Assembly: GCA_000091205.1 (NCBI GenBank)
Contig: AP006497.2
DNA from: Cyanidioschyzon merolae
Taxonomy: Eukaryota
DNA: 64,000 bases
Direction: 5' to 3' (one strand)
Shown in pieces: positions 773 through 58,200 of the stretch (positions are counted from its first letter, which is position 1; each line of letters begins with the position of its first letter). Below the pieces are notes generated by a model. That model made no database searches. It was not told the origin of the DNA and worked only from the letters and a program-made list of their open reading frames with translations. Position numbers and translations under genes: made by a program.

Positions 773-3169
773 CTACTGCGCTTGGCCCACGGCCGGTGAA
801 TCCCGCGCTGGACTTTTGGCATCACATCGGCTATCACAAGCTGATCCCGCCTGCGCTCGAGGTCGTATACTGAACAAATATCCGTCGGCATGTGCCGTAC
901 GCTTTGGTGAGCTCGGAAATACATGGCGCTCGGGCGCAGGGATCGGTTCGATGATGAAGCCACGAGCAAGCATTTCGTTCTCCGCCGTAATTCGCTGGCG
1001 GCGCAGCGCCTCATCAGCACTGAGATCGTCATCTGGATACAGTTTCTCAGCGGCACACACGTGCCAATCTATGGGTGCTCGTAGCACGTCTGGATCGCCT
1101 TCGCGATTGAAGGTTCCCACAGTCTTAACATCTTGTGGTAACCGACCACGTTTGGGTATCCATAAGAAATGACTGCCTTCATAATAGCAGCACTCCAGGG
1201 CGCGCTGAAAATCGATCGTTTCAAAAGTCAGGTGGGGATACTTGGCCTCGTCCATACACATGACCGATTCATGAGCATCCTGTGCATCCTCGAAAAAAGC
1301 GATCGCCGGTCCGAACGGAGTATCGACCGCGATCAATTCGTATATGGGAAACTCCTCATCAGACCGGATATACGATAGCACGGAAACTTCCTCGACATCC
1401 GTGAACGAGACGCGGACAGGATCACTTACCGGTTCGTGGACACCCTTTGCATTGCCGATTCCGTCGTCAGGAGTCCATCGCTCCTCGTCCACAGGCGGCC
1501 GGCTGGACGTGCGCTCATCCAAATCTCGAGGTAGCAAAGCGAGTGGCGAGCGCTCTGCCCCATGCTCTGCAGGTACGAGGTGTCTCGGCTCCGGTGCTAC
1601 GACTGGAAACGATGACGCTGTGGCGCTTCCAGTCGATCGAGCTCGGCCAGCATCCCCTGATCCCGTACTGCTCGGTTCCGCGGATGTGTCGCTGTCAGCA
1701 GTCGCACGACAGCCACCTGTACCGCGTTCCACTGACGCGGGTACAGAGCCGGCCTGCGAGCGCAGCGGATCGCACGATCTATGACAAGGCGTCATCGGGC
1801 CACTGGTGCCACCGAGAAAGGAACTGGAGCGGGATCCTACCCCTGGCGTCGCCCCCGATGTCCAGTTCCTCGTCATTTTGGTCTCATTGAGCCAAAAAGG
1901 ATTCCACTCAGCTAACTCGCGTTCCCATGCAGCAACAGCTGACCGTTTCACAGCGTCAAGAACAAAAGTGGGCGGTGATTCAAAAGTGGGTAGGCCGACT
2001 TGCTCCCAAATGAAATCCCAGAGGCGCTCGAGCCACCGCAGAGGACTTCCACGACCACTGATCCCGATGTCACGGTCCATTGGTGGCCCTGGAAGGCAGT
2101 CCGCTGACAACGACGGTGCTCCGGATGTCGCATCATACTCTGACACGACGGACTGCTGGCTGTCGTCCGCCCAGGGCCCAAAGCCAAGAAGCCCCCAGAG
2201 ACCACCGCCCCCGCCTAACCCTCGTTTTCGGCGCCAGCGTTGGAGCATTATCTTGTTGATCTCGTTCAGACGCAACCGGAAATCGTCTTCCGAGCTTGAA
2301 AAACTCGCTGGAAGAACCGCGGGGCTCGGGGGCCGCCGCCCTCCAATCGCCACCGTCGACCCGCCTAGCACAGGCTGCTTCGACAGGCTCTCGTTCAATT
2401 TCACCAGTTCTCCAAAAAGCTCCCGCCAACGCAAGCGCTCTGCCTCCTCCGTTTCCACCGCATTCTCTGAGGCGCCAGTCCCGACCGCTAGCGCAGCTCG
2501 CGGCAAGCAGCGAACGCGAGGTATCCCCGGTCGCTCACGCACCAACAACGTAGACGGTGTCACAACACGTCCATTCGAGCAGCCCGCGCTCAGCGTTGTT
2601 GAACTCGGCGATACATAGCCAACACTGAGGCCAGAATCAACCGAGCTCGACTCATGAGAACGCCACCACTGGCTCCGACCTGGAGGCGGCGAAGGCGTTT
2701 CCGTAACAGCTGTAGTGCGCTGCGGTGGACGCTTCCACGCATACGGCCAAACAGACGCCTGTAGTGCGCGCTGCCGCCCGGGCTGTGTTGCGGCAAGTGC
2801 GTTCGTTGCCTCCGATCGAGCCTGTGCGGGCTTCAGCCAAAACATATGCGTCGTGTTAGAAGGAGCCGTGCCCAGGCCTATAGTCCAATGAAAGACGACG
2901 AGTAGCGCGCACTGTTCAAGCGCGTGCGCGCCATCGACGTATCGAGCGCGCCCGGCGGGATTTGGAAATGGGTGCGCAGCGCGCCGAGACGTTGAGATCG
3001 CGCCTTCGGCATCATGGACGCGCACGTCGGTTGCTCGCCGCAAATTGCCACGCACGCGATGGGGTCTAGAAGAAACTGTAATAATTTGTAGATTTATGGA
3101 TGGTATGGATAAGAGGGGACACAGTGCTTGGACGCGCGATCGCCGCAGCTGGGACACGAATGGACACAA
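773..3169 (-). CDS. Hypothetical protein with a conserved-looking C-terminal domain. The true start is probably internal, for example near 2845 or downstream.
   Basis: 798-aa ORF. The N-terminal ~250 aa is S/R/P/G-rich low complexity typical of GC-rich spurious ORF or disordered sequence. The region from about aa 240 to the end has balanced, W/F/Y/E/K-rich composition (RWLERLWDFIWEQVGLPTF...EEFPIYELIAVDTPFGPAIAFFEDAQD...CCYYEGSHFLWIPKRG). The ORF start at 3169 lies only 44 bp from the stop of the next same-strand gene, so the annotated Met is unlikely. No family recognised. Confidence 0.4.
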   Translation of the reverse strand: MCPFVSQLRRSRVQALCPLLSIPSINLQIITVSSRPHRVRGNLRRATDVRVHDAEGAISTSRRAAHPFPNPAGRARYVDGAHALEQCALLVVFHWTIGLGTAPSNTTHMFWLKPAQARSEATNALAATQPGRQRALQASVWPYAWKRPPQRTTAVTETPSPPPGRSQWWRSHESSSVDSGLSVGYVSPSSTTLSAGCSNGRVVTPSTLLVRERPGIPRVRCLPRAALAVGTGASENAVETEEAERLRWRELFGELVKLNESLSKQPVLGGSTVAIGGRRPPSPAVLPASFSSSEDDFRLRLNEINKIMLQRWRRKRGLGGGGGLWGLLGFGPWADDSQQSVVSEYDATSGAPSLSADCLPGPPMDRDIGISGRGSPLRWLERLWDFIWEQVGLPTFESPPTFVLDAVKRSAVAAWERELAEWNPFWLNETKMTRNWTSGATPGVGSRSSSFLGGTSGPMTPCHRSCDPLRSQAGSVPASVERGTGGCRATADSDTSAEPSSTGSGDAGRARSTGSATASSFPVVAPEPRHLVPAEHGAERSPLALLPRDLDERTSSRPPVDEERWTPDDGIGNAKGVHEPVSDPVRVSFTDVEEVSVLSYIRSDEEFPIYELIAVDTPFGPAIAFFEDAQDAHESVMCMDEAKYPHLTFETIDFQRALECCYYEGSHFLWIPKRGRLPQDVKTVGTFNREGDPDVLRAPIDWHVCAAEKLYPDDDLSADEALRRQRITAENEMLARGFIIEPIPAPERHVFPSSPKRTAHADGYLFSIRPRAQAGSACDSRCDAKSPARDSPAVGQAQ

Positions 3170-3212
3170 GCAGGGCGCTGATGCTCGGTGCTCCCGGAGC
3201 GCGCTGCACGCA

Positions 3213-3782
3213 TCACAGAGGCTTCATTCGTTCTCCTGTGTGTGATGTCTTCTCGTCGACGAATCCGTTCTCATCTTCATGCTGGCGATCGTTGTTCGAG
3301 CCATGGATGATGGCACATCTCGCCTTGCGAGAGCCGCCCGGGTACAGCGCAAAGATGGAGGGTATCATGAAACGTTCGGGGTTCATGTTCATATGGTTGT
3401 TCGGGTTCGCGAGGTACTTGATTGCGCCGTATTCGTAAACAACCGAGTCGCCCCTGAATAAAATAACGTTGAAGCGGTATTCAGCATAATTTTCATGGAG
3501 GGCATGCACTCGCTCGTTTCTCCTCGACGTTTCCCCCGTGCCAAGCATTAGGCGTCTGTTGCAGGTAACGTTGAAAAGCTCCTCCGGAACCTCGACCGTT
3601 TTCAATTCCATAACGTAATCGTACATCTCTTTCAATAAATGGATTATTCCTGAAGAAGCCTTGCAAACACTCAAGGAGCTGGACGCGACACGGTTTCTGA
3701 TAGCCTCTGGCAGCTTTTCCTCATAGGGATCCTTGATATTCCATAGAAGAAAGGCTTTCACCTCTATCTCGTCGATCTGCAA
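3213..3782 (-). CDS. Small cupin-like protein, possibly thiol-dioxygenase or ARD-like. Assignment is weak.
   Basis: 189-aa ORF in a locally lower-GC segment with balanced amino-acid composition. A His-rich motif HALHENYAEYRFNVILFRGDSVVYEYG resembles the cupin metal-binding pattern H-x-H-x3-E ... G. No strong family signature. Confidence 0.35.
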   Translation of the reverse strand: MQIDEIEVKAFLLWNIKDPYEEKLPEAIRNRVASSSLSVCKASSGIIHLLKEMYDYVMELKTVEVPEELFNVTCNRRLMLGTGETSRRNERVHALHENYAEYRFNVILFRGDSVVYEYGAIKYLANPNNHMNMNPERFMIPSIFALYPGGSRKARCAIIHGSNNDRQHEDENGFVDEKTSHTGERMKPL

Positions 3783-4856
3783 TCTTTCGGCTAGCTTCTG
3801 ACGTCGGACCTCCGGCTTTCGCTTCTTTTCTTCTCCTGTTCCTTTTTACTCGGTTGTGAATTTCGTGTTGTTCTGGCAGCCGGTGATACCGGCCCAGCAA
3901 GATCCTCGACTTCCTTCTGCATAATGCTATGTTTTTGGAAGAAACACACTTTGAACGCATCTGCTATAAACCGTGAAAAATCTCTTGAATCCACTTACTT
4001 GACGCTTGAAGCACAACTGAAATGAAAGACTGTATTTTGTCACAACTTTAACCGAAATATATCTTGTACGGTAGAACGAAACGCTATTCGTTAGAAGCGC
4101 GTTCCTCCTCAACGGCGAGATGCGCGTCGTTGCTCTCGGCTGCGGAATATGGAGGTGCGCGACCCGACCCCAATATATAGAACAAAGAGCAGAAACTAAC
4201 CACTAACTTGCAACGACGTTACGATTTCTTTCCCTCTCTATGATAAACATGAAAAGAGGGTAGGGCTTTTCGTGCTGTCGAACGTTCGCCTTCTAGGCCG
4301 AGGTTCCCGCGGGCCGGACGAGTCTGCCGTGCAATCGCTCCGTATTCCTCTGCAGTGGCAGGTGCTGTGGTGAGATCTGAGCAACTCTTCTGCAGCGCAG
4401 GTAATTCTGGGACTCGGAGCGGGTAGCATGCGTCTGGGCGTTGCGCTTGTCCTAGTGGACATCTAGTGTGTCGCTTCGCGCTGTCGCAGGTAGTACGTTT
4501 GTCTGTGCAGATCGCAGGCTCCCAGCATGATAACTAGCCCTGATTCCGTGTCAGATGGAGCATCCCTCGATCCGACGCCCTATGCGGTTTGGCAAAGCCG
4601 TTCCAGCGTGGTGCTGCATCCCTACCAACGATATAGGCGCTTTGGCTGGAACTCAAAGCAGGCACTCGGCATAAGATAGAGCCTAGGAAAACGCCAGCAC
4701 ATCCGAGAGGAAGTAAAACGAACGGAGCCTGGAAACAGAGCGTGGAATCATGGATACGTCAACGCGCGCTATTCTCAAGGGCATCGGTCACGGAACGCTG
4801 GCCTCTGTGTCAACGACTCGCTCGAAACCGAATTCCGTTACGTCTCGCCTCTTCGT

Positions 4857-23457: not shown

Positions 23458-25099
23458 CTCACTCTGCTACTGCGTTTCGATTTCGTTCGAGGATTTCTCT
23501 AGGTTGACAGCCTCATTCATGGAAAAGCCGGACTCAAGGTTCATGGTTTCATACGCCGGTGAAAGGATGCTGGGTCGCCCATGTATTGGCCTGACTCCAT
23601 CCCTTCTCTGTCGCTGGATCTCGTTACGTCATTCGAATCAAGACGATTCGCCACATACCCGTAATATTATTCGCAAAATAACCGCATTCCTTCTCACATT
23701 CACACGTACGAGCCTCCGGTCTTCTCACTTCCTCACGTGAAACATGGCTCAAAGCGGGCAAGCGTCAAGTTTTCGATGTTTCTATTTTAAACGAATCATG
23801 GGCAGTGCAGCTCGCTTCGCTCGATTGACAAGGAACGAAACTCCACGCGATCCCGTGACGGCCAGTTGAAATGCTCTTGCCGAAATCTCACTGGACTTGA
23901 CACGTCAATTCCGGTGGAAAGACTAATTGTCGGTTCTTTATAAATATAGATGACGTGAATTTCGACACGAGCCTGATACTCGCCCCAAGATGTACACCGA
24001 GAGGCTCGCGTCTCTTGTGTTTGCCTGATAGAGAGTCTTGGGTTCGGGCTTGAGGCACTGCAGCGATCGCTTCTATTCGAGATTGCGCCAGAAGGTTGCA
24101 CGAAGGACAAGCAGACAGATCCAAATTTTTCAACTTGGTCTCCAGCCCGAAGATTCGTTCCTACGCTTGGTTCACATGGAAGGCATCGGGTTCCACTAAT
24201 TCTCAACCGCACGGGATCGCATGCGCTTGCCTCTGCAGTGCATAGGTTATGCGCCCGAGGTGATCGTCCCGATCAAGCGCACGGTCGTAGAGTACGCCAT
24301 CGGACGCGGAAACGGGGCAGGGCATTGAGAGTGGCCTGCTTGGCCCGTCAAGAGCATGGACCAAGCGCTGAGGCAAGCGTGCGTTTGTCACAGGGCGGCG
24401 TTCGGAACCAGCGCATGTGCAGTGGCCATACGGGAACACCGGATCACAACCAAGTGTCGCCGCTGCACAGCGCACACCGAGGCTGCAAACAAACAAGATG
24501 AACATGCCAAGTGAAACTCCGATCGCAGCCGCCGCCTGTGCATCAAATGCTCCTAAATCGCCCGAAGCAGTGACATCGGACATCGAACGCTACCATCAAC
24601 ATCATTCAACTGCTGTCAACAAAGCTGCACGGACAAGAGAGATCCGCGCGCGCAACACCAGTGCTTCGAGCGCGGAAACGGAAGCAATCACAGAAACCCC
24701 CCGCAAACACCAATCTAGACGACACATGAAACTCACCCAAAGGTTAACGCATCCGATCGATCCAGAACATGCACTCCGCTTTATGTCGACTCGGACCACA
24801 TCGTGATTCGGTGCATCACCAGCTGCTTCGGCGAGCTGTTCGTGAGCTGCATGCGTTGCCGGCAGGCTGCAGGCGACGCAGCGGTCGCGTGCATGAGCGT
24901 GGCGCAGCGGGCGTCGCGGACACGCACCGTAAACACGCATACGCATGCATGCACGCACGCAGACGCACTGAGATGCGATCGCGCGCGGGCGCATGTCGCG
25001 GCACCATCGACGCTGCTGCCGCCGTAGAAGGCGCCTGGCGATGCATCGCGAACGGATGGCGACGCAGCGCGCGCCGTGGACACGTGGCGCGCATGATGC

Positions 25100-39748: not shown

Positions 39749-41467
39749 TCAAACGCACTCTTGGCCGAAATCACGCGTAAAGCGCTCGTATGCTCCTAAA
39801 TCTGCTTTGCTGACAGTCGGCTTGGTATGGAGCAGTACTTCTTCGAAATCACTGTAACGGACATCGGGTACGAGCAGCTTGTCGGCTGGGACGTCGTACA
39901 GGTTCATTTCCACTGCTCCTGGTGCCGCCGGAGAGCACGGCGTCCAGAGTAGCTCTGCAGATGCAGTGTTCGTGAACCGAACACCGCGCGCCGCATTGTT
40001 GTTCGAGGATGTATCTTCGGCACCGCCGTCTCTCTGCAGGGTTCGATGGTGTGGACGCGGCGATACTTGTCGGAAATGCGTCGCCATTTGCAGGCGCCGA
40101 ATCGGCTGCATGATTGCATCACGGACAACGATTTCGATATCCGCACCGCTGTAGCCTTCAGTTACATGGGCAAGGCGCTCGAAATCGCAAGCGCTGAGAC
40201 TATGTGGTGTATCTCCGATGTGAATTTCGAACATTCTCCGACGCGAGCGTTCATCTGGAAGTGGAATGTATATCCGGCGCTCGAACCGCCGTCGAATAGC
40301 CGGATCCAGCTGCCATGGCAAATTGGTGGCGCCCAGTACCAAGACGTGCTTTCCCTCCTTACGAGTCTCATCACCAGTTGAAAGGCCTTCTTGCATCTGC
40401 ACCAAGAATTCTGTTTTGATTCTTCGAGTTGAATCAGAGTCAGATTCGGATCTGCTCGAACAGAGCGCATCCACTTCATCAATAAAGATAATAGAGGGTG
40501 CAGACTCGCGCGCCATTCGAAAGAGTTGTCGAATGAGCTTTTCTGATTCACCCTGCCATTTGCTGACCAGATCTGCAGACGACACGCTGAAAAACGATGC
40601 CGCACTTTCTGTGGCAACAGCCTTTGCAAGGTACGACTTACCGGTGCCCGGTGGGCCGTACAGCAGAATACCACGCCACGGTTCTCTCTTACCGGTAAAA
40701 AGCAACGGTAAGCGCATCGGGAGCACAACCGCTTCCTTCAGTGCCTCTTTCGCGCCGTCTAGACCAGCTACATCATTCCAGCGAACCTGGGGGCGTTCGC
40801 GAACGATCACGGACGCCAGTTGCTGGCGCAGGCGCTCGGTCTCGTCTTTGGTTGGAGCCGAGGCGGCGGTACCCGCTTTCTCAGCACCAGCGCCAGAACC
40901 GCCGCTTCCATCAGCAGGCCCTCTACCGCGGCGTCGCTCTCGAGCTGCTGCTGCTGCTGCTGCTGCTGCTGCCCCGTTCGACTCACCCGAGCCGGTGTGC
41001 GGGCTCAGGGTAGCCGCCGCCGTCGCACCTCCGTTTGTGTACGACTCGCTCTCGAAGGGCAACCCGTCCGCACCGTCGTCGCTCCCCGAGGCCTGTTCAT
41101 AGGCGCCACGCTTCAGCAGCTCCTTAATAGATTCAGCACGTGATATGTACTCACGCACACGAGTCTGTAAGAGCACCCGGGTTCTCTCGGACTTTTCCCA
41201 GCGAATCGCGGTCATCAGGTACTCGATAGCACGAAGATAGTAGTGATACGCCGCCTCAAACGTCTCATGGTCCCGTGTTCTCCGCGCCTCTCGATCAGTT
41301 TGAGTCGCTTTATTCGCGAACTCTATTCCTTTGTCCACAAACGAAGTCATTACGCTTGTAACGCGGAAAGCGTCCCCCAGGCTGCAAGCCCAGGCTTTGG
41401 CAGACAAAAACGCACTGTTTTGCCTGGACAGCACCGCGCGCGCACGCAACGCGCACCCGCTGGCCAT
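39749..41467 (-). CDS. VPS4: Vps4-type AAA ATPase (MIT domain plus AAA plus Vps4 C-terminal domain), ESCRT-III disassembly
   Basis: The MIT domain reads [77 protein letters not shown]. Walker A is [21 protein letters not shown]. Walker B is [10 protein letters not shown], then the SRC/arginine-finger region, and the Vps4 C-terminus ...[11 protein letters not shown]. The linker holds an Ala run from (GCT)n. The probable start is the Met at 41353 (MTSFVDKG). Confidence 0.85.
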
Positions 41468-41974
41468 TGCGATGCGCTGCTGCGCGCGATCATCCGAACG
41501 GGGGTGTGTGTGCGTTTCGCCGGTGTCCAGTGAATATGGGATGCTGTGCTGTTCGTATTGTCCCTATATGTTCAGATATTTGTGGGCGAGTGTTCGTTGT
41601 ACTGTCTCGATTGTACAGGTTCAGAGAAATGGGGCTTGTGGATGCTATAGACGTTTTAGGATGCATGATCGTGTTTGTTTGTTTGTGTTTTGGAGTGATT
41701 TCTCTTCGATGCTTTGTCGCTGACATTCGGAAAGACAGCGGCGTGAAGACGATTCGCGATAAGCTCGAGCTAGGGATCGTGTCATACTGGATATGATGAT
41801 GATGGTGATGCAGGTGCTGCGTACGAGGCTGCACGCTTCTCCATGTGCACGGACGGCGAGCGCTAGTCATGCATATTTCAGGTTTCGGATCTTGCCGATC
41901 CAAGGCAAGTCGTGTGCGCAGCACACGGTGCAGTTGTTGATGGACAAGGTCGAATAGTCATCGATGTGGTTTCT

Positions 41975-42680
41975 TGGCGATTTGCTCATCAGCTTGGTCC
42001 GGATATTCACTGAAGGTGTCGCGTGAAATGATCGATTCCGTTCGGAAGATAAATCTTCCTCTCTTTGTGGCCTTGAATGAAACGATTTTCGACGCTAGTG
42101 TGATATCTTTTATGGGATGCAATCGTGGAGGCTCCGATCTTTACTGTTTGCATGAAAAAGGGTCTTGAACTCGGGCTTGCGTCATTGGAGCGATAGGTTA
42201 CAGTGAAGTGCGCGTCGCAGCGTGTAACGAAGCGAACACAGGCGGATGGAGATTGTCGTATTCCCTTCCAGCTTGGATTCTTCTTTCAGTGTTTGTTTTA
42301 TCATGGACAACAGTGCATGGAAACCATCGATCGATTGGAGCAGCTTGTAAAGCGGCATGTGACGAAGCGAGCACTGGCGAATGGACTTTGGTCGTATTCC
42401 TCTTCAGCTTGGATTCTTCTTTCAGTGTTTGTTTTATCATGGACAACGATTCATGCAAACCATTCATCGAATGGAGTGTCGAGCGCTCATATGGCCGGTA
42501 GCCAGCGCACTCGCCGAAGGGGTCGCCCGGAACAATGCCGTATTCGTACGATACGGCACTGGGTGCATAGACGGTGTAGAGCATCTAGAAGAGCCCTATG
42601 GAGGCCTCAAGAGCATGTACCAAGCTATGAAGCAAGCGCTCACGAGCGACGGGGCGGCTCCTGGAGAAAGAGTTGTGGTG
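41975..42680. repeat. Dispersed repeat, copy A, internally repetitive (137-bp tandem duplication plus an inverted internal motif)
   Basis: The two copies are about 75% identical by eye: 42001-42180 matches the reverse complement of 54780-54960 (catgaaaaagggtcttgaactcgggcttgc against catgaaacagggtcttggagtcggatttgg). Within copy A, cgtattcccttccagcttggattcttctttcagtgtttgttttatcatggacaac is repeated in tandem about 137 bp later. Its reverse complement (atgaagcaagcgctc) recurs at about 42610. Confidence 0.6.
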
Positions 42681-44941
42681 GACCTACCGACGCATCTGAT
42701 CGCAGGCAAGAGCCGCCCCTGTGAAGAATCTGACGAGGTTGTCTACAACGAAGATGAAACAGGCAGTGGAATAGTGGAGAGCTATTTTCGCCTGTGGATG
42801 ACATGCGTCGCCAACATTTGGAAGCTTCGAAATCGGCACCTTGACGATGCCATCGACATCCTTCGACTGCTGACAACGGAGCTAGAGGTACAAGAGAGAC
42901 AGTCACATCGAAAGACGTCGAGAATATGGAGCAAAAATGAAGCAGTCGGAGAACAAGGCGGCGGAGACTGGTGCTGATCACAGTAAAACGGGTTGCAAAC
43001 TTTATCGTGTATGCGCGAGTTAGAGGACCCTCTCTATGCCATTCCGGCTCGGGCGTAGACTCAAACACCAACAGACATCTTGATCCGCGAGGCGTGTCTC
43101 GGCATGCTTTCGATGCTAGTAACGACAATTGATCTGCTTTCTGGCTAGTTTTTCTTTTTCGCAGGGTGCAGAATCGTTTACACAAAGCAGGTATCTCCGA
43201 TTGCGCAGTATTGTCAGCAGCCGGGAGAGCATCCATCTTTCCTCATCATACGCCCAGACGCTACCAGCTGCCGGCTACTGGAGACGCTCGTTTCGACAGC
43301 CGCTTCGTCAGCGTTCATGGTCGCTGAGGTGCATCAATCTCACCCGGTGCACGCCTGCTGCTGGCTCTCAGAAACGACTGCTTCGTCCCTGCACAGAGAC
43401 ACCCATGTTACGCCAATCGCAGACAGGTCGTCCGTTATGGAATACGTTCGCGACCTATCGACTGATATTCTGGGTAAAATGCAGGTTGGGAGCGCTGCTC
43501 GGCGAAAGGACGTCTTCACCAGACCCGCGAAGGCGTCACCTCGTAGACAAACGGATCGGGTCGGTGCATCCAATGTATCAGGCGGAAAGCTCTCTTCAAC
43601 CCAACCACCTCTGGAGACGAGGCTCTGTTGTCCATCTTCTGACAAGTCCGGTTTATCCTTTGTAGCAACGTGTGCCCTTGATATGCAGACATACTGCGAC
43701 AGTCCCCGAAGCTGTACTCTAGAAAATGTCTCTCGTCATGCGACGTTGAAGAGAGTCTGGCTATCACGATTAGGCTTTGCGGCAACCGGTTGCAGAGCTC
43801 ACAACGCCCCGCAGGCCTCTACAGAACGCGAACGAAAAAATATGATCAAAAGTACCAGGATTCATGGGCACTTATGGTGATCATGGAAGCGGCCGCAGTT
43901 TGTCGAGACAATGCCTTCGATGAGTCGCTCATGCATCCTCGATGAAACATAACAACATGTGCATCGTTCACGGGACATGCTTCAGCCATGGTTTTCGTAC
44001 GATCTACGATCGGCGCACCCGCCTAGATACTTTACAGGCTTTGTCTTTCGTGGAACAGGTAATTCAGTAGGATGTTTGCATACCAGAAGGCAACGGATCG
44101 CTCGCTGGCACTAGGCATGCACCAAGAAGACGTTCAGCAACGGAACGTGAGTTCCCCTGCTAAAGACGTCGAGCAGCTCCAATTTGGATATCGACGGACG
44201 ATGTTCCTCAGCAGCTCTTTCAAGCTCGTTCTCCTCTGCATTGCTTGAATGGTCAGTGACCTCGCGTCCACAGCAGCAAGCCCAAGACGTATATGAACGA
44301 GCTGCCGCTGACATAGCTGAGTGATAAGCGGCTAGTTGCCATCCGTACGCCAACATCAGAAAGCATCAGCATCGCTACCTTGTATACTTCCATCGTCGAG
44401 GTCGAGCGACCAGCGCAGATATCCTTGCGAACATCTGCAACAGAATTCGGTAAAACCGGTATCAACAAGTTGCTGATCTCCTAAACAAGGAAAACCATCA
44501 TGCTAAGCTACTGCTCTGGAGAGCAGCGCATGCTCCAAGCTCGCTGCGTTCAGCCATTCAGCATGAGCATAGCGCCACCGTGCTTGCTGCAGATATAAGA
44601 ATCCCGCCTATCTCGATAAAAGTGGCTGCTATGGGTGTACGCTGCCATCCGGGTCGCCGCACAGCAAGCGCACCACCAGCAACAGACGATGGAGCGTTAC
44701 TGCACCTGCGAAACAACGTTGCACATGCGCTGTGTTCAGGTTGTGGTGACGTCGCAGCACTAAAGCCGCGCCACGAAAGGAAGCAGCAACGAAGGCTATA
44801 GGCTCTGGACACTAGCACTGAGGATAACGTTAGATTAGAGTTGCACCCCTGAGACGAAGTTCTGCACGGTGAACGCTGTACGGAGCGAGCGGCGCCAGCT
44901 GCTGGGCGCAGCGGCCAGCGTTCCACTTCCAGTCACAGCGC

Positions 44942-47698
44942 ATGGGTCGGGCTCGGGAGCCCGCGTATCGTAAGAGGGGTTTTCAACGGACCTGGATCAG
45001 CAAAGTTTATCTGGCAAACTTAGGCGAGTCATCGGCGGTGGATGAAACGCAGTCCCCAAACCTCGGTCTAACGTGCTGGGCACCGTCGATATGTCCTGCT
45101 AGCCAGCACGGACGTGCTGGCGCTTTCCTCCCGCTGGCTTCTGGACCAATTGTTGGCCTCCTGAGGCACCGCCCGGACCGCAGAGAGCGCCTCCAGACGA
45201 GCTTGAACGCTCGGAGCGCCACCGCGGAAGCGAAACGCTTCTTTCTCCAGCGGCGTCGATGCCACCATGCACCGCAAGCCTTTTCTAGGGCGCTTCATAC
45301 ACCGCCGAGAGGCCAGCGCACGCTGCATGACTCCCAGTTTTTGGGAAGAGCAAGTGAGTTTCACCGACCTTGTCTGCTACGGCGACAAGCACGTGCACCA
45401 TGGTCCTTGTGCATGGAGCAAGGCGACCGCGCTTCCGCTTCGGAGCGTACAACTCCTCCGCGTACCGCAAATGACGTTCAGCAAGGCATCCAAGAGGCAA
45501 GTCAGCGAAAAGCCGGTGCACGAAGACACCCGGGGCGGCGTTTTGCTGCGTTTACGCAGATGCTGGCCCGTCGTTCGACCTACCGCGATGGCCTCGTGCT
45601 GCTCCTGCTCGTACTGCTGGCATATGCCATGGCGGGAACCACGAGTTATGCCATAACGCAGCGCTATGATCCAAGTGCGGTACGAATATCGTGCGACCCG
45701 CGCGTGCTACCGGCGTACGGTTTCCAGTCGCTCATGAGACTGGTACTGGCCTACGGATTCTCACTGGTATTCTCGTTAATCTACGCGTACATTGCGTACA
45801 GGGCCTCGTTTGCTGCGCAAGTGCTGCTTCTCATTATTGACGTTTTGCAATCCGTCCCTATTCTCGCTTTTGTCCCAGCAGCAGTGCTGGGCCTGATCGC
45901 CATGTTTCCAGGGCAACGCATTGGGGTCGAGCTGGCAGCGATGCTGTTGCTCTTCACCTCGATGGCGTGGAATATGCTTCTTGGCTTTTACCAGTCCCTA
46001 ATATCCATACCGCCGGACCTGATGGAGGCAGCCAGAATACTGCGACTCTCAGCGTGGCGGCGTTTTTGGTTGCTGGAAGCGCCTTCGGGCGTGTGCTCCC
46101 TCGTCTGGAACTCCATTATCTCCGTGTCCAGCGGGTGGTTCTTTCTGATAAGCATCGAGAGCTTCTCACTGGGGCCCGGCAGAGAATATCGTCTGCCGGG
46201 CTTGGGAAGTTTCCTTGCTGAGGCTGCGGATCGAGGCAATATGCGCGCGATCTTCTGGGGTCTGTTCACTGTAGTGTCGCTTATTATCTGCATCGATATG
46301 TTGATCTGGCGTCCGCTGATCGTCTGGAGTGAGCGCTTCAAGTTCTCGACGAACGCCAGTTCCGGCATCGGGGCGATCAGTTCGCTGCAGAGGAAGGCAT
46401 CGCGCTCGCCTTCGTCGTCGTCGTCTGGGCTGCGTTCGTCACTGGGGTCGGACGCTAATTTCGCGGATGAAGACGACGACCGCGAGAACGATAACTACGA
46501 CGACGACGACGACGATGATGATGAGAATGACGCGTCTTCTTTCGCGTGGGCTGGTGCACCACGTCGGCAGTTCCGTGTTCTGGAGCTTGTCCAGATACCG
46601 GATGCAACCGCGAGTGCCACAAGCAGCGCGCCCGGACTCGCGATCATGCACAGCATCGAAGGTGAGTCTGCTCCCGGAGCCGAGCAGGTTGTCATCCAAC
46701 AACGCGAACTGGACGCACCACGAAGCATCGTGTTTGCATATTTCCAGCGCTCTCCATTGATGCGTGCCGTTCACCGGCGATTCTTTCTGCCTCTCTGGCA
46801 GAAATTCATTGATGCAGACGTGATCTGGGAGCGTGCAACGGAAACAACTTCCCAGACGCTGGCACTAGCCTGGAAGCGCGTGCATCAGCCGCATCTGTTG
46901 CTGCGGCTCTGGGGCTTTATGGTTCGTTTGCTTACATGGAGCAGTGTGCTGGGCATCGCCTGGTTGGCGTTTCTGGCGTTTCGCGTTGCCCACCACGCGC
47001 TACGGATTCTGCAGACGATTTCGTGGCGCTCGTGGATCACCATTCTGAGCTGTGCTGGACTGACCTTTGGTCGTGTGCTGACGGCTTTAGCGCTCTCGTT
47101 ATTATGGACAGTTCCACTGGGGGTTGCTGTCGGGTGCTCACCGGCACTGGCTCGCGTCCTCCAGCCGCTAGTCCAGATCGCTGCTTCCGTGCCAGCGACG
47201 GCAGTATTCCCGTTTCTGCTCCTGGGGTTAGCGAATTTCGGCGGGCTTGGCTTGCAGATTGGCTCGATCCTCTTGATGATGTTCGGCACGATGTGGTACA
47301 TTCTGTTCAACGTCATTGCAGGTGCTGCAGCGATTCCCGCGGAGCTCTGGGAAGTTGACGCGGTTTACAACAAGGCCACAGACTCGTGGCTTGCTCGCCA
47401 GTGGAGACGATGGCGCTTTCTCATCCTGCCCGGTATCTTCCCATACCTCATCACTGGTATTGTTACGGCTGTTGGAGGCGCGTGGAATGCGAGCATCGTT
47501 AGTGAGTACGTCCAGTTCCAGGGCCAGATTTTATCGACCAAAGGTCTGGGGGCGCTCATATCGAACGCAGCGGCTCGTGGTGATTTACCGTTGCTGTTAG
47601 CGGGGACCCTGGTCATGTCTAGTTTGGTGCTGCTCACGAATCGTTTTGTCTGGGCGCCACTCTACAAGTTAGCGCGTGAACGCTACACGCTCAACTAG
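44942..47698 (+). CDS. Bacterial-type ABC importer permease: two fused BPD_transp_1 (binding-protein-dependent transport inner-membrane) domains, NitT/TauT- or FbpB-like, joined by an acidic linker
   Basis: EAA motifs occur in both halves: MEAARILRLSAWRRFWLLEAPSGV in the first, and ELWEVDAVYNKATDSWLARQWRRWRFLILPGIFPYLITGIVTAVGGAWNASIVSEY...GLGALI in the second. There are about 6 TM helices per half. A poly-Asp/Asn linker (DEDDDRENDNYDDDDDDDDEND, encoded by (GAC)n) separates them. The N-terminal 206 aa are R/A/P-rich low complexity, so the real start may be the Met at 45560 (MLARRSTYRDGLVLLLLVLL). No ABC ATPase or solute-binding protein ORF is present in the window. Confidence 0.8.
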   Translation: MGRAREPAYRKRGFQRTWISKVYLANLGESSAVDETQSPNLGLTCWAPSICPASQHGRAGAFLPLASGPIVGLLRHRPDRRERLQTSLNARSATAEAKRFFLQRRRCHHAPQAFSRALHTPPRGQRTLHDSQFLGRASEFHRPCLLRRQARAPWSLCMEQGDRASASERTTPPRTANDVQQGIQEASQRKAGARRHPGRRFAAFTQMLARRSTYRDGLVLLLLVLLAYAMAGTTSYAITQRYDPSAVRISCDPRVLPAYGFQSLMRLVLAYGFSLVFSLIYAYIAYRASFAAQVLLLIIDVLQSVPILAFVPAAVLGLIAMFPGQRIGVELAAMLLLFTSMAWNMLLGFYQSLISIPPDLMEAARILRLSAWRRFWLLEAPSGVCSLVWNSIISVSSGWFFLISIESFSLGPGREYRLPGLGSFLAEAADRGNMRAIFWGLFTVVSLIICIDMLIWRPLIVWSERFKFSTNASSGIGAISSLQRKASRSPSSSSSGLRSSLGSDANFADEDDDRENDNYDDDDDDDDENDASSFAWAGAPRRQFRVLELVQIPDATASATSSAPGLAIMHSIEGESAPGAEQVVIQQRELDAPRSIVFAYFQRSPLMRAVHRRFFLPLWQKFIDADVIWERATETTSQTLALAWKRVHQPHLLLRLWGFMVRLLTWSSVLGIAWLAFLAFRVAHHALRILQTISWRSWITILSCAGLTFGRVLTALALSLLWTVPLGVAVGCSPALARVLQPLVQIAASVPATAVFPFLLLGLANFGGLGLQIGSILLMMFGTMWYILFNVIAGAAAIPAELWEVDAVYNKATDSWLARQWRRWRFLILPGIFPYLITGIVTAVGGAWNASIVSEYVQFQGQILSTKGLGALISNAAARGDLPLLLAGTLVMSSLVLLTNRFVWAPLYKLARERYTLN

Positions 47699-48209
47699 GA
47701 GCAGCGCAGTGACGCCGATCCAGGTTGTTTCACTGCTAGGATTGGAGGCTCTTTGTGATGATAGATCCCCTGGTATCTGTGTTCGATACCTGTAGTGGTG
47801 CAACTTGCAAGACTAGACCCTAACTTTAAATCAGTTCTGTGTTTAGTACATGGCTCATGAATGACTAGTGCGTTCTTCGGGATTAGACGGTAAAATGCAG
47901 CACTTTGGTTACTCCGGGCGCTAGGCTTGCCCAGTGACAGTCTTCCCGATGACAGGTGCTTCAATACAACAAAGCGCATCCAGAGAGCGATGCAAGGCCT
48001 ACCTTCTCAGCATGATCGGTGTCGGGAAACGCCCTGCATGACAACGTGTCGTCAACCGTTATACCGGGGGCGGTACGGGAACGCTCCGTACGCGAAGCCA
48101 TCGTCATGCTGCGCGTTTGCTCTGCTTCTGCAGGTCCGAATCATCCATGCAACATATACAATCAATAACTTTTAGCATATGCGTCTCCGGATGCAAACAC
48201 AATGCATCA

Positions 48210-49088
48210 CTAGCGACTTTTTTGCTGGTGTGAAGACGCACCCCGTCGCTGCGGCGCCCTCGCCCGGACAGCTGCAGATTTCAATGGGTTCGGGAAGAAC
48301 GCGTTTCGGTTCAGTGACTTGTACTCGGCAAAGTTCTCCAAATACCACTGATGGTTGCTCCGTGCCCTGGGGTATAAGTTCGAAAACGTCCAAAGCGCGA
48401 ATGAGAACGCTGCCCACGTCTGTGCGGCGATCGCAAAACCCGTCCATTCCACAAACTCAGAGAAGTAGTTCGGCGCGCTGACGTAGCGATACAGACCACC
48501 ATATGGAATAGCGTAACGTTTCTCTTTGATCTCTTCAGGGTTTCGCCGCAACGCTCTCGTGATCGCGTCGCTATGCCAGTTGCCAATCAAGCCACACACC
48601 CAAAGCAATAAGCCGCTGCAGAATGCCCAGTCCAAGGACCGACGCGAGCGAATGACCAATTCGTAAACGAACAGTGCTTTCGCATTTAAATAGGTGTTAA
48701 TGACGCAGAACAGGATAGCTGTCGAAACAACAGTGAAGGTGGTAGGCTTCGAGCCTCCACGCATCCGCAGAGGGAACACAAAGGCGCGGTTCGCATAGTG
48801 AACAAGCCAACAGAACGCCAACGTAACAGTCATCCACTCCCGTTCATCAAACCCGAGCTTCAAGAGTTTGTCGGTACGCTGACGAAGCCAACGAGTCAGG
48901 TACACGGCCATAATCAGGAACGAGGGGCTCTCTTGTATGATCCAGCCCAGGTCGCTGCGCAGCGTAGGGCCCCAGCCGGTACGCAAATGCCGCCCGTATG
49001 GTGCTGATACGAGGAAAAGCACTGGAAACACAAGTACGGCGAGAGCAATCCAGCTCCATAATAGTGCATCATCCGAAAGAAGGTTCAT
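48210..49088 (-). CDS. Steroid 5-alpha-reductase family (3-oxo-5-alpha-steroid 4-dehydrogenase, DET2-like) membrane protein
   Basis: N-terminal ...SAPYGRHLRTGWG (cf. DET2 APYGRH) and the C-terminal family signature YVSAPNYFSEFVEWTGFAIAAQTWAAFSFALWTFSNLYPRARSNHQWYLENF. The ORF is 292 aa and multi-TM. Confidence 0.85.
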   Translation of the reverse strand: MNLLSDDALLWSWIALAVLVFPVLFLVSAPYGRHLRTGWGPTLRSDLGWIIQESPSFLIMAVYLTRWLRQRTDKLLKLGFDEREWMTVTLAFCWLVHYANRAFVFPLRMRGGSKPTTFTVVSTAILFCVINTYLNAKALFVYELVIRSRRSLDWAFCSGLLLWVCGLIGNWHSDAITRALRRNPEEIKEKRYAIPYGGLYRYVSAPNYFSEFVEWTGFAIAAQTWAAFSFALWTFSNLYPRARSNHQWYLENFAEYKSLNRNAFFPNPLKSAAVRARAPQRRGASSHQQKSR

Positions 49089-54559: not shown

Positions 54560-54990
54560 GTGCCGCACCCCACGATTACGCGCTTGTTCGATGCGAGCGC
54601 CTCGATGATACCTGCCTGCTGCATGCACAAGCGCATGATGTTCCACCCGATAATTGATTTGTGGAACGCGATGTCGTCCATGATGAAACAAGCACTGGAA
54701 GGAGAAGCCAGGCTGGACAATACCCCGAGAAATTTCGATCCATCGACGCTCGCTTCACTTGAAGCGATGGCTCCGATGACCCAAATCCGACTCCAAGACC
54801 CTGTTTCATGCAAGCAGAAGTGACGACAGCCTCCGGGAGCGCATCTCATGAAAGGTATCATGCCGCTGTCGAAAGCCGTTTCGTCGATGACTCCATAGCC
54901 AGAGGGACTTGTCGTTCGAATGGAATCGATCACGCGACGCGGGTTGTTCAACAAGCTTTCAGCATGATTGTGTACTGAACTCCTCAAGGG
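54560..54990. repeat. Dispersed repeat, copy B (inverted relative to copy A at about 41975-42680)
   Basis: The reverse complement of 54600-54960 aligns with 41990-42380 at about 75% identity (gtgatcgattccattcgaacgac against gaaatgatcgattccgttcggaag; ...catcatggacgacatcgcg against ...tatcatggacaacagtgcatgg). Short ORFs on either strand translate to related peptides in the two copies: FMGCNRGGSDLYCLHEKGS and FMRCAPGGCRHFCLHETGS; PAWILLSVFVLSWTT and PAWLLLPVLVSSWTT. Confidence 0.6.
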
Positions 54991-55285: not shown

Positions 55286-58200
55286 ATGAATCCTCAACGC
55301 ATATTTCTGCACTTTGCAAGTCGAGACTTTTGCTCTAACCCATTCGGAAACAAAAGTCACAAAGCAGGAAGCGAGCATCCGGTACACTGCCCTATTCCAG
55401 TCTGGCACACAGACCGATGCAGCAGCGCCCCGATTCGGCAGCGGAACAGAAGCGCCGCTCCTGGACACACTGCTCCGTTTGTTTTTGAGCGCTCGCCGAG
55501 CTCCGGGGAATGCGTTCCGGGAACGATCATGACATCCCAGCGAGAACTCCTTCGTTACGTGGAGAGTGATTTGCGGTCTCTGGTAGCGAAGCTGGGGAAA
55601 CGAAAAGTTGAACGAGCGTTTGTCGAAGATCTCCCGTTTCTTACGGAGCGTTTCTCGAGCTGGAAGAGTGCCGTGGAACGCGTACTGACGCAGTTGCGTG
55701 AGGATGATACGCAAGCTCGTCTTTCGTTCTCACTTTCGATCGACCTGGTGGGTCACGTGCTCATCCACAACGTACAGTCAGTGGAGAACTGGCGTAAAAG
55801 TGAAGCAAGTACGCTTCTTGCACTGGGGCTTCTGCACCGTCTCGCAAGCCAGGCAGCGTTGCCAAGCCACCGCGTCGCAGACGTCGTCGCCTTGCTGAGC
55901 TATTTCGTTCTCAGTGTTCAGAAACTGGTCCTTCGAAGCGAGTTTTCGAAGCGTCGTTGGTTGATTTATGGCGAGCGCAACGGTGCCCAGGTTCCGGGAA
56001 CGAACTCGGATCAATCGGACGCAACGGACTCGTTTTCACGTCGATCCTCGCCCGGAACAGTATCTTTGGTGGAAGAGGCCCTCGAGCAAGCCACCTGCGA
56101 GCAAACAGCTGCGGTCGGACAACGTGCCACCGAAACCCAAGTGCTGCCGGGAAACGACCTAGTCTTGGTCGAGCGGCAACTGCTACGAGTCCTCCAGGTC
56201 CTTTTCGAAATACCATCTGTGCAACACAGGGCCGGTGCAGCTCAGGAATACGATGTAGACGCTTCGAAATCAGACTCAGCGGCTAGTGTCTCCAAAATGT
56301 GCCAAGCATCCCTACCACAGCGACTATTTACGCTCCTGACGCTGATTGAGCAGCTTCCCGGAGTGACTGCAGTGGTTGCTCGCACTGCAGCAGCTGCGTT
56401 AGAGCGATACTGCACAGCATTATTCGAGGATCGTCTCTGGAGAGAGCAAGTCGCGATAGCTTTCGTGGAGGATCTCTGTTTGCTGACGCTGGAACGGCCG
56501 CCTGTTCACGGCTTTGGGACGCTCTTGTCCCTGCAGGTCCAGACGAACACGAGCAGTCCAGTCGAGTTGCCGGGTGCTTCGGCCTCTGCCGCAGAGCGCA
56601 CGTCATCATCGCTGCAGCAAGAGCGACGAGCACAGGCGTCGCCCGAGGCCGAGGACCTTGACGAAGCCCGAGAGGGCCATCCAGAATCGCTATCCGCCGC
56701 TCAAGTGACGTCCACTGGTGCGATGCAACAGAAGGAAACGTATTGCCTGGAAGTGATCACCCCAAGCCCTGATGTTATGACGTCGCTGCTGGCGGAAGCG
56801 CTGGGCAGGGCGATGCGTGGTGGTCTCGCTCCCCAGGCTTGCCTGCTCAAGCGTCTTTTTCCTTTCGTCGAAGCACAGCTGAATGAGGCCGAGCTCTCCT
56901 GGTCAATATGCAGTCTCGCAGCCGCGTTAATCCAGGCACCGGTGGCCTCGTTTGGCGCCCTGCTCGCGTCACTTGCTGGAAGGATGCTGGAGCAATTAAG
57001 GGTCTCGATGGATCCGAGCTATTCATCATCTGACACGAATCCTAATCAAGTTCTGTTGATGCATCATCGCGCACTCTTGTTGATCGAGACTTTTCGCGAT
57101 GCATTGCTTACCGGAGCGTCCACTGCAGAGGACCGTGCTTTTATCAGCAACAGCAGCAGCAGCAGCAGCTCCTGGTCACCACAAGCGCTACTCCGATACC
57201 TGGAGCGCGAATCAGATAGGACGTTCGCGTCACAAAACGCTGCTGCTGGAGCAGGCGATACGACCTCAGCGCTGGGTACGGAACAAAAATCGTTGCCTTC
57301 AGTCGATGAGCGACGTCGTCTTCGGGAGGACGTTGTTACGTCCCGAGAAACAAGCGCGGAGGCCTTTTCAAAATTGCCTGCGTCGGAGACCGGGGGTATA
57401 CTCACTCAGTGGGTGGCGATGCTGCAGCTGTGTGTCACCACCGGCACATCGATGGTGACGGAGCTGCAAATGCTGCCCACAGGTCCGTTGCGGCATCAGC
57501 GCCCGCTACTTCGCCAACTCGGGCAACTTATCGAGGAGCCCAAGCATAGAAACCTGGACGGCGAACTCTGGGGGCAGCTTACGAGCGCGGCGCTGGGTCT
57601 GCTTTTCGTCTTGTTGGAAGCCACCGATCCCGTGGCGGATGTGGACTTTCTGCGACGCACCTGGCCGGACTTTTTGACGGCGTTTGGAGCTTTGCTCGCA
57701 CGTGCACAGCAGGTTCCGGCGGTGGTGCTTCAGCCGCTCATCGAACGGGGCATGGATTCTTTGCTCCAGCGTCTGGCAGTTGTACGGAGCTCTGTGGACG
57801 CGCCCTCGATCATGAATGACTCCAGCACCGACGCATCTGGGCTTCTTGGTGGCTCTGCTGGGCAGCCACCTGCGATGCATGGCTCGACGTCGGCACTGGA
57901 ACCCTTTGAGACGGTGTTCATCTGCCTGTGTCGTACCCTGCGGCTGGTGCGAAGTACACGATCCGCCTCTGCTTCTGCTTCCGACAGCGAGGCTGTGCAT
58001 GTGTTGACCTGCCTTGGGCGCGTTTTACAGAGCAACTTGCAGCGCGCGCTTTCGACAATGCACGAATCGGAGTACAACACGAACACACCGCAAGCTGTGG
58101 TCGAACGCAGGCCGCTTTGTAGTTCCTGGAGTCCCAATACTTGGCTTGCTCTCGTGGAGAGCATTCTAATCGCAGGAGACGACGATCGTGATGCTGCCTC

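Follow-up and report, generated by a model that had tools for sequence, protein, structure and literature searches.

A fused ABC importer permease of the red alga Cyanidioschyzon merolae and its unlinked ATPase: a probable inheritance from the cyanobacterial ancestor of the plastid

We propose that CMO283C, a gene of the red alga Cyanidioschyzon merolae 10D, encodes the membrane subunit of a two-component ATP-binding cassette (ABC) transporter which red algae inherited from the cyanobacterial ancestor of their plastid. We consider this proposal likely to be correct. The gene lies in a stretch of 64,000 nucleotides from contig AP006497.2 (the window, in what follows), on a nuclear chromosome of 902,900 bp. 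In the list of open reading frames (ORFs) made for the window it runs from 44942 to 47698 on the plus strand, starts with ATG and has 918 codons plus a stop. The product is identical to XP_005537656.1/BAM81620.1, an "unknown ABC anion transporter" of C. merolae 10D. Steensma et al. (2023) entered CMO283C as a cmpB-like candidate bicarbonate transporter, at 24% identity and an E-value of 8e-5 (PMC10154280). The gene is already annotated and discussed in the literature, and as a feature it is ordinary in kind. A functional study of CMO283C, of its proposed partner CMK129C or of the domain PF09821 was not found in the literature. The duplicated permease COG4986, together with its PF09821 ATPase, is a catalogued but uncharacterised two-gene ABC system.

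A first-pass annotation, made from the letters of the window alone, had read the ORF as a permease with two BPD_transp_1 halves. This description stands: PF00528 (BPD_transp_1) scores 78 bits in two stretches, against a gathering score of 26.4. Several other parts of that annotation do not, and we take them up where the evidence is given.

A permease fused already in bacteria

The nearest relatives of CMO283C are found in Cyanidiococcus (71%), then in Cyanidium and Galdieria, and further red-algal homologues occur in Rhodosorus, Porphyridium, Pyropia, Gracilaria, Gracilariopsis, Agarophyton and Eucheuma. A scan of prokaryotes, with one genome per species, gave at least 597 relatives, and 80 loci were kept for the counts of neighbouring genes reported below. 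Among the matches listed, the best prokaryotic ones belong to Cyanobacteria, followed by Acidobacteriota, Chloroflexota, Verrucomicrobiota, Gemmatimonadota, Dictyoglomota and Proteobacteria. All 80 matches kept span both halves of the protein (tblastn, residues ~210-918). From the first helix to the C-terminus CMO283C is collinear with fused bacterial permeases of 574-607 amino acids (574-579 in cyanobacteria), and the alignment takes in a conserved stretch of the linker between the domains. Only two segments have no bacterial counterpart. One is an N-terminal extension, present in all red algae, and the other is an acidic insert in the linker. Because the alignment runs from end to end, fusion and linker must be older than the transfer to the alga. 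The two halves of CMO283C are 27% identical to one another and 40-47% identical to the corresponding bacterial halves, so that duplication and fusion are much older than the transfer. The idea of a notable eukaryotic fusion, as the first-pass annotation had it, is therefore to be given up, since the fused architecture and the conserved linker are ancestral in bacteria.

In the AlphaFold2 model both halves have a predicted local distance difference test score (pLDDT) of about 80-97. A Foldseek search of the PDB places CmpB (9u9z, 9ua0, 9ua1) and NrtB (8w9m, 8wm7, 8wm8) at the top, with target-normalised template modelling (TM) scores of 0.63-0.68, a root-mean-square deviation of ~3.2 A and ~20% identity in the superposition. 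Each half of CMO283C superposes on CmpB or NrtB in this range, and the best match has a score of 0.66-0.68; FbpB, OpuA, SugAB, MetI and ModB are among the other matches. The fold is thereby confirmed as one of type-I importers, of the NitT kind. We conclude that CMO283C has 12 helices and forms a pseudo-heterodimer from two type-I importer halves that are NitT-like and were fused already in bacteria. The likeness to the NitT/TauT family suggested earlier holds at the level of the superfamily. At the level of subfamilies, NCBIfam matches are far under the equivalog cut-offs (SaoP, 62.1 against 295 bits; ntrB, TIGR01183, 54.9 against 209; TauC, NF007545, 34.9 against 342).

FbpB of the Thermus thermophilus ferric-ion importer FbpBC (9j4r), which the first-pass annotation had brought up for its tandem fusion, also consists of two fused type-I halves. 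It superposes on CMO283C over 720 columns with a target-normalised TM score of 0.60, but the identity in this Foldseek match is 14%, and neither NCBIfam nor Pfam gives a match of the Fbp or CysTW type. The fusion in FbpB is an independent one, analogous to that of CMO283C and not akin to it. Fbp systems use a binding protein, FbpA.

A partner ATPase on another chromosome

In Nostoc punctiforme the homologous permease gene is directly downstream of the gene for a 441-residue ATPase, composed of ABC_tran and AAA_assoc_C (PF09821), and this locus (L001, 4477-7740) holds no binding protein. In bacteria the arrangement is almost obligatory. An ATPase of the PF09821 type is adjacent to the permease and on the same strand in 78 of the 80 bacterial loci, with the order ATPase-permease in 65 and permease-ATPase in 8. 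Among the flanking genes of these loci there is no conserved third gene beside the pair. A neighbour resembling a binding protein (Phosphonate-bd/NMT1) stands upstream in one case out of 63, and downstream, the families seen most often include none of binding proteins. In its native form the bacterial module has no binding protein. Such a module has been noticed before: in Liberibacter, Li et al. (2012) described an ATPase with a C-terminal PF09821 predicted winged helix and a permease with two tandem transmembrane domains, lacking a binding protein, and termed the arrangement a "possible novel ABC system"; in Ca. Liberibacter asiaticus the pair is CLIBASIA_02415/02420 (PMC3688454). In Liberibacter crescens the permease belongs to the essential gene set (PMC4837290).

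Two genes recur immediately upstream of the ATPase-permease pair, a stand-alone Response_reg receiver (12/63) and a GH77 4-alpha-glucanotransferase (9/63). The loci concerned (L012-L087) are mostly those of Acidobacteriota, and the recurrence is probably lineage-specific synteny. KdpC was seen upstream of the module once.

The corresponding ATPase of C. merolae was found through representatives clustered at 50% identity, with the Nostoc ATPase as query, where its cluster ranked seventh of 1.84 billion. A search of a large protein database with the same query returned close cyanobacterial relatives only and is uninformative on red algae. The algal protein (P0412) is XP_005536544.1, of 653 amino acids, encoded on a chromosome of 852,849 bp; it matches CMK129C, which bears the same annotation in PMC10154280. 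It has ABC_tran at residues 122-259 (2e-32) and AAA_assoc_C at 478-599 (2.6e-31), aligns at 44% identity with the whole of the Nostoc partner, and carries an N-terminal extension of ~115 residues. With CMK129C as query, the same architecture is found in Cyanidium, three Galdieria species, Agarophyton, Gracilaria, Hildenbrandia, Pyropia and Porphyridium, and then in cyanobacteria. A homologous PF09821 ATPase (P0349, from EukProt), with an N-terminal extension of ~75 residues, also occurs in Rhodelphis marinus, which belongs to the sister lineage of red algae and is not photosynthetic. Among the eukaryotes seen here the family is confined to red algae and this one Rhodelphis ATPase. Between its ABC and PF09821 domains, at residues ~350-470, CMK129C contains a low-complexity insert that opens ~87 gap columns against Nostoc. 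As CMO283C has a linker insert of its own, the linkers of both subunits have been expanded in the Cyanidioschyzon lineage. Long homologues of the ATPase include no fusion with a permease, and their extra parts are sensor domains.

CMO283C and CMK129C are not adjacent and lie on different chromosomes (902,900 and 852,849 bp), which is to be expected after transfer of the two genes to the nucleus. The first-pass annotation had described the permease as being without partner subunits. This is true of the 64-kb window, where a six-frame stop-to-stop scan found neither an ABC-ATPase-like ORF nor a second permease, and which has no gene for a binding protein; it is not true of the genome, given the ATPase CMK129C. 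CMK129C starts with MFTIP, the Phe-type N-terminus of a putative targeting peptide, and is assigned to the plastid by TargetP and PredAlgo.

The lack of partners in the window, together with a composition like that of the host, could also be taken to mean that CMO283C is an orphan: a bacterial permease acquired horizontally, newly fused in the eukaryote and left to work without a partner, possibly as a stand-alone channel or carrier. We find this highly improbable. The fusion is ancestral in bacteria, the genome of C. merolae does encode a partner ATPase, which is co-distributed with the permease over red algae, the gene is syntenic in other Cyanidiophyceae, and it stands with those of all red algae as a sister to cyanobacteria.

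Compared with the bacterial COG4986 and PF09821 module, then, the algal system has the same permease with two halves in one chain (end to end, 40-56% identity to CMO283C) and the same ATPase architecture, it likewise appears to lack a binding protein, and its genes are orthologous to the cyanobacterial pair. It differs in that the genes are unlinked, that both products have N-terminal extensions, presumably for targeting, and disordered inserts in their linkers, and that the second EAA loop is degenerate (EVD).

Origin and residency of the genes

Trees were built by neighbour-joining with 100 bootstraps and a limited sampling of cyanobacteria. In the permease tree, red algae are monophyletic with a support of 100, and red algae plus cyanobacteria are separated from other bacteria with a support of 100. 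In the ATPase tree, the sequence from Rhodelphis (P0349) sits on a very long branch and its inclusion breaks the monophyly of eukaryotes; when it is left out, red algae are supported by 100 and red algae plus cyanobacteria by 82. A red-algal clade that is sister to cyanobacteria indicates transfer from the endosymbiont.

The gene has also stayed in its place. In Cyanidiococcus the order of genes at the locus is identical, from V-ATPase d to Mon2. The permease gene adjoins a gene for a Steroid_dh (3-oxo-5-alpha-steroid 4-dehydrogenase-like) protein in Cyanidioschyzon (44942-49088), in Cyanidiococcus (L006, 10001-13971) and in Galdieria partita (L007, 8001-11118). The relative orientation of the two genes differs in Galdieria; the microsynteny is deep within Cyanidiophyceae. 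Horizontal transfer and rarity, both raised in the first-pass annotation, are at odds with a gene that is syntenic in Cyanidiococcus, present across Rhodophyta and sister to the cyanobacterial genes.

Since the protein is of a bacterial type, one may ask if the locus is a bacterial contamination or a mis-assembly. This is the only point that speaks for it, and we give it practically no chance. The flanking genes are eukaryotic (Vps4, steroid 5-alpha-reductase, UBX/TUG, Mon2, glucokinase and V-ATPase d), and base composition is even throughout the window. At third codon positions the GC content of the ORF is 0.635, within the range of neighbouring genes (0.56-0.64), so that the eukaryotic nuclear setting and the matching composition reported earlier are both borne out. 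The order of genes recurs in an independent assembly, that of Cyanidiococcus, and bacteria have nothing like the additions at the N-terminus and in the linker. The Galdieria orthologue is apparently interrupted by introns, as is suggested by a gene range that does not translate directly to the protein. These are the marks of an old, constrained gene that came from the endosymbiont, and not of a recent horizontal acquisition or a contamination.

Targeting and a possible mechanism

In rhodophytes, plastid precursors carry an N-terminal motif that contains Phe (PMC2222254). N-terminal extensions are present in both subunits, and in most red algae the Phe motif stands at their start. Permeases of florideophytes begin with MPAFV, MVAFV, MTAFV, MAAFV or MTTFV. 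ATPases begin with MAFV in Hildenbrandia and Pyropia, with MFVV in Porphyridium, with MFAAP in Cyanidium and, in CMK129C, with MFTIP. For CMK129C, TargetP predicts the thylakoid lumen and PredAlgo the chloroplast. These N-termini, and a position sister to cyanobacteria, agree with the plastid association that had been mentioned before for eukaryotic permeases of this type. A plastid location is well supported for the family and the partner ATPase; for CMO283C itself we infer it, and its extension (residues 1-215) is presumed to be a plastid transit peptide.

If so, the system may work as follows. CMO283C and CMK129C would both be imported into the plastid. A dimer of CMK129C on the stromal face would dock onto the two EAA loops of the permease, and ATP hydrolysis would power the alternating access by which the fused permease works, in the inner envelope membrane (the thylakoid being less likely). 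No dedicated binding protein would take part. The extension at the N-terminus and the linker insert with its poly-Asp run would be disordered, fast-evolving additions with no role in transport. The substrate would be a small ion, which is the weakest step of this scheme.

An ABC importer of the plastid envelope that is derived from cyanobacteria, is of the BPD_transp_1 type and has nuclear-encoded subunits exists in Chlamydomonas, in the chloroplast sulfate permease SulP/SulP2-Sabc-Sbp. That system belongs to the CysT/CysW subfamily; its permeases are encoded by two separate genes, and a binding protein is part of it. No homology between SulP and CMO283C beyond the Pfam family was seen here, where no search aimed at it was made.

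What might be transported

The "anion" label of CMO283C is weak, because it rests only on distant homology to NitT/TauT proteins. It could still be supposed that CMO283C is the red-algal equivalent of BCT1/CmpB or of NrtB, and that it supplies the plastid with inorganic carbon or nitrate by pumping; its listing among candidates for the carbon-concentrating mechanism goes back to this reading. No solved structure is closer than CmpB and NrtB, either in sequence (E 1.7e-6) or in fold, the NCBIfam match to NtrB exists though it is sub-threshold, and CMO283C is the reciprocal best hit of cmpB (PMC10154280). Nevertheless, CMO283C is not an equivalog of NrtB or CmpB, with 54.9 bits where 209 are called for and ~20% identity. 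What its halves have in common with the permeases of CmpBCD/BCT1 and NrtBCD is the fold and the NitT superfamily. CmpBCD and NrtBCD have two different ATPases, one of them with a C-terminal domain that resembles a binding protein, and a binding protein, CmpA or NrtA. Their permeases CmpB and NrtB are single-domain proteins of ~280 residues, two chains of one sequence per complex, whereas the CMO283C system has a fused chain, one type of ATPase with PF09821 and no binding protein of the CmpA/NrtA type. The CMO283C transcript has no significant response to CO2 (PMC10154280). Moreover, the module is abundant among bacteria that are not photosynthetic (Acidobacteriota, Bifidobacterium and Liberibacter), and a homologue of the ATPase is present in Rhodelphis, which is not photosynthetic either. 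We therefore regard a carbon or nitrate pump as unlikely.

A different suggestion comes from the bacterial module. Bbr_0406-07, the COG4986 operon of Bifidobacterium breve, is preceded by an M-box, which is a Mg2+ riboswitch (PMC5746004). We scanned 105 bacterial and metagenomic loci with Rfam, and the M-box (RF00380) was the only riboswitch class beside the module. It occurs at two of these loci, each time full-length, directly upstream and on the same strand. In L055, from a proteobacterial metagenome-assembled genome, it occupies 4329-4502 (123 bits; gathering score, 44). Downstream of it come, in this order, a GC hairpin and T-run that resemble a terminator (~4564-4603), the ribosome-binding site and the permease start. 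In L107 it occupies 122-285 (141 bits), ahead of the permease (537-2261) and the PF09821 ATPase (2267-3574). The M-box is a sporadic but specific associate of the module. As a general feature of the module it was considered and rejected, since 12 diverse loci (five of them cyanobacterial), B. minimum and the nearest relatives of L055 are without it. To the nuclear gene of the alga it does not apply. According to Shin et al. (2014), an M-box "almost always" stands upstream of a Mg2+ transporter, and the same logic yielded the transporter NrmT (PMC4072509).

The sensor domains fused to long homologues of the ATPase (P0258, P0266, P0267, P0269, P0314 and P0321) point in a similar direction. MgtE_N is fused once at the N-terminus and once at the C-terminus, there with CBS (P0266); a KdpD sensor domain is found twice and PTS_EIIA_2 twice. 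One ATPase fused to KdpD is encoded directly downstream of a BPD_transp_1 permease (L090, 525-4010). MgtE_N, KdpD sensor and PTS_EIIA_2 domains are linked to the homeostasis of Mg2+ and K+. Some bacterial COG4986 modules thus stand behind an M-box, as do MgtE, CorA, MgtA and NrmT where they are regulated by it, and some PF09821 ATPases are fused to the cytosolic Mg2+-sensing domains that MgtE also has; in sequence and fold none of these four transporters is related to the CMO283C module.

M-boxes and sensor fusions point to cation homeostasis. A role of the module in the acquisition or homeostasis of Mg2+ or another cation is possible, although we would put it at well below an even chance. We rate it above transport of bicarbonate or nitrate, since no other option has regulatory evidence behind it.

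Points against the hypothesis

A number of observations weigh against parts of what we propose. Concerning origin, the trees are neighbour-joining trees only, cyanobacterial sampling is limited and the ATPase grouping has 82% support. Concerning the pairing, we infer the interaction of CMO283C with CMK129C from the adjacency of bacterial genes and from co-distribution. Type-I importers normally require a binding protein, and an unlinked one may exist.

As to targeting, the predictors disagree on CMO283C (thylakoid lumen in TargetP, other in PredAlgo), and its extension has no Phe motif at the N-terminus. Compared with the extension in Cyanidiococcus, it has no significant similarity other than near M158. 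Metagenome gene calls of 760 or 761 amino acids begin at M158 (45413); since the extension is not conserved and these callers start there, either M1 or M158 may be the true start. No report of experimental localisation of the C. merolae proteins was found in the literature. Given these predictions and the missing Phe motif, one might suppose that the complex works elsewhere than in the plastid envelope (in the thylakoid, the mitochondrion or another membrane) or that it is an exporter, the more so as TargetP gives the thylakoid lumen for both subunits and the direction of transport is not readable from sequence. We consider this improbable. Orthologues of both subunits have canonical plastid-type N-termini of rhodophytes, and the cyanobacterial ancestry of both fits the plastid; a thylakoid location would still be a plastidial one.

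As to the substrate, the lead towards magnesium is thin. The M-box is absent from 103 of the 105 loci, including those of cyanobacteria, of B. minimum and of the closest relatives of L055. To our knowledge there is no ABC-type importer of Mg2+, and all characterised relatives of NitT/TauT known to us move anions or small organic molecules.

Parts of the CMO283C protein

All parts are on the plus strand. The N-terminal extension (44942-45586, residues 1-215) has no counterpart in alignments with bacterial homologues. It has 16% Arg, with 39 Lys and Arg against 14 Asp and Glu, and residues 1-196 have a pLDDT of ~33 in the AlphaFold2 model and are predicted to be disordered.

The first transmembrane half (45587-46351, residues 216-470) comprises six hydrophobic segments by hydropathy and the better Pfam stretch of BPD_transp_1 (276-451). 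Its pLDDT is 75-94, and its identity with the corresponding half of bacterial members is 47%. An EAA motif is present in both halves. In the first it reads EAARILRLSAWRRFWLLEAP (residues 362-381), and the whole loop, read from the translation, is EAARILRLSAWRRFWLLEAPSG (46025-46090, residues 362-383). In this loop E362, W372, R374, F375, W376, P381 and G383 are invariant or nearly so, and it is the presumed docking site of the ATPase.

The acidic, Ser-rich linker insert (46352-46711, residues ~471-590, or more narrowly ~485-590) is found in Cyanidioschyzon, Cyanidiococcus and Cyanidium only. Residues 491-578 have a pLDDT below 50 and are disordered in the model. Inside the insert, Tandem Repeats Finder and the translation show a (GAC)n microsatellite (46472-46515) which encodes a run of eight Asp (residues 520-527). 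The run is unique to C. merolae, and an environmental variant of 917 amino acids (P0001) has one Asp fewer. The first-pass annotation was right about the tract and its poly-Asp product but not about its part in joining the two domains, for it is a microsatellite insertion in a linker that existed before and not the joint.

Next come the conserved part of the linker and the first helix of the second half (46712-47011, residues 591-690), with the motif SIVFAYFQRSPLMRAV, which are common to cyanobacteria. Red algae and cyanobacteria keep S595, S604, R608 and P617 with little or no variation, and the helices of residues 596-690 have a pLDDT of 57-92. The second transmembrane half (47012-47695, residues 691-918), also BPD_transp_1, holds the GGAWNASIVSEY motif; NCBIfam stretches cover residues 699-896, the PDB sequence match to CmpB covers 705-900, and the pLDDT is 81-97. 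By alignment its EAA loop lies at 47351-47431 (residues 804-830). It is degenerate in red algae (EVDAVY...RWRFLILP) and a canonical EAA loop in cyanobacteria.

CMO283C and P0001 differ at 10 positions. Six are in the extension and four in the linker (including the loss of Asp), and the transmembrane halves have none. Within the lineage-specific insert the changes are at 502 and 534, plus the change in poly-Asp length at 520.

The rest of the window

The first-pass annotation had placed the gene in a 12-kb block between inverted repeats. An inverted-repeat scan with a seed of 12 and a minimum length of 30 found none. A laxer scan gave a pair of 198 nucleotides at 42020-42217 and 54744-54941, 70% complementary and bracketing 12.5 kb, so the pair exists in a weak form. 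A third, weaker copy is at 23960-24073. The copies are intergenic, of ~200 nucleotides and 69-75% identical, and there are at least three in the window; the loci of Cyanidiococcus and Galdieria have none. The notion that the pair marks a mobile block was rejected, because this is a dispersed repeat with a third copy and it is missing from those two loci. It is no mark of an insertion of the permease, for Cyanidiococcus, without the repeat, keeps the gene order both inside and outside the bracket. Each copy of the inverted pair holds a short frame starting with ATG (MQTVKIGAS... and MQAEVTTAS...), and the similarity runs past the frame.

Between Vps4 and the permease there are 3.5 kb (41468-44941) with no convincing ORF; the longest reach 198 amino acids, one on each strand, and overlap one another. 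The matching spacer in Cyanidiococcus is ~960 bp long (L006, 9041-10001). The spacer in C. merolae may contain an unannotated gene, a non-coding RNA or DNA derived from repeats.

Perfect trinucleotide runs, (GCT)n at 40942-40972 and (CAG)n at 57145-57171, are inside Vps4, where the run encodes poly-Ala, and inside Mon2. They account for spurious "inverted repeats" in the repeat scan.

Implications of the hypothesis

CMO283C and CMK129C are orthologues of one bacterial two-gene module and not equivalents of CmpB, CmpC and CmpD. This makes them weaker candidates for a bicarbonate pump in models of the carbon-concentrating mechanism of C. merolae. The family to which they belong is widespread in bacteria and uncharacterised. 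It apparently manages without a binding protein, which is unusual among type-I importers.

The magnesium lead can be tested, given the M-boxes and the fusions to sensors of the MgtE, KdpD and PtsN types. C. merolae is amenable to genetic modification. For complementation, bacterial strains deficient in Mg2+ transport exist (PMC4072509).

We would suggest, quite tentatively and as somewhat doubtful, that the COG4986/PF09821 module is an unrecognised ABC-type system for the acquisition of Mg2+ (or a related cation), that it is induced by limitation of Mg2+, and that red algae have retained it from the endosymbiont as the Mg2+ supply of the plastid. In green plants there is a Mg2+ route of the CorA/MRS2 type. 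If our suggestion is true, red algae would have a plastid Mg2+ route distinct from that one, and both the "anion transporter" label of CMO283C and its listing as a candidate bicarbonate pump would be wrong.

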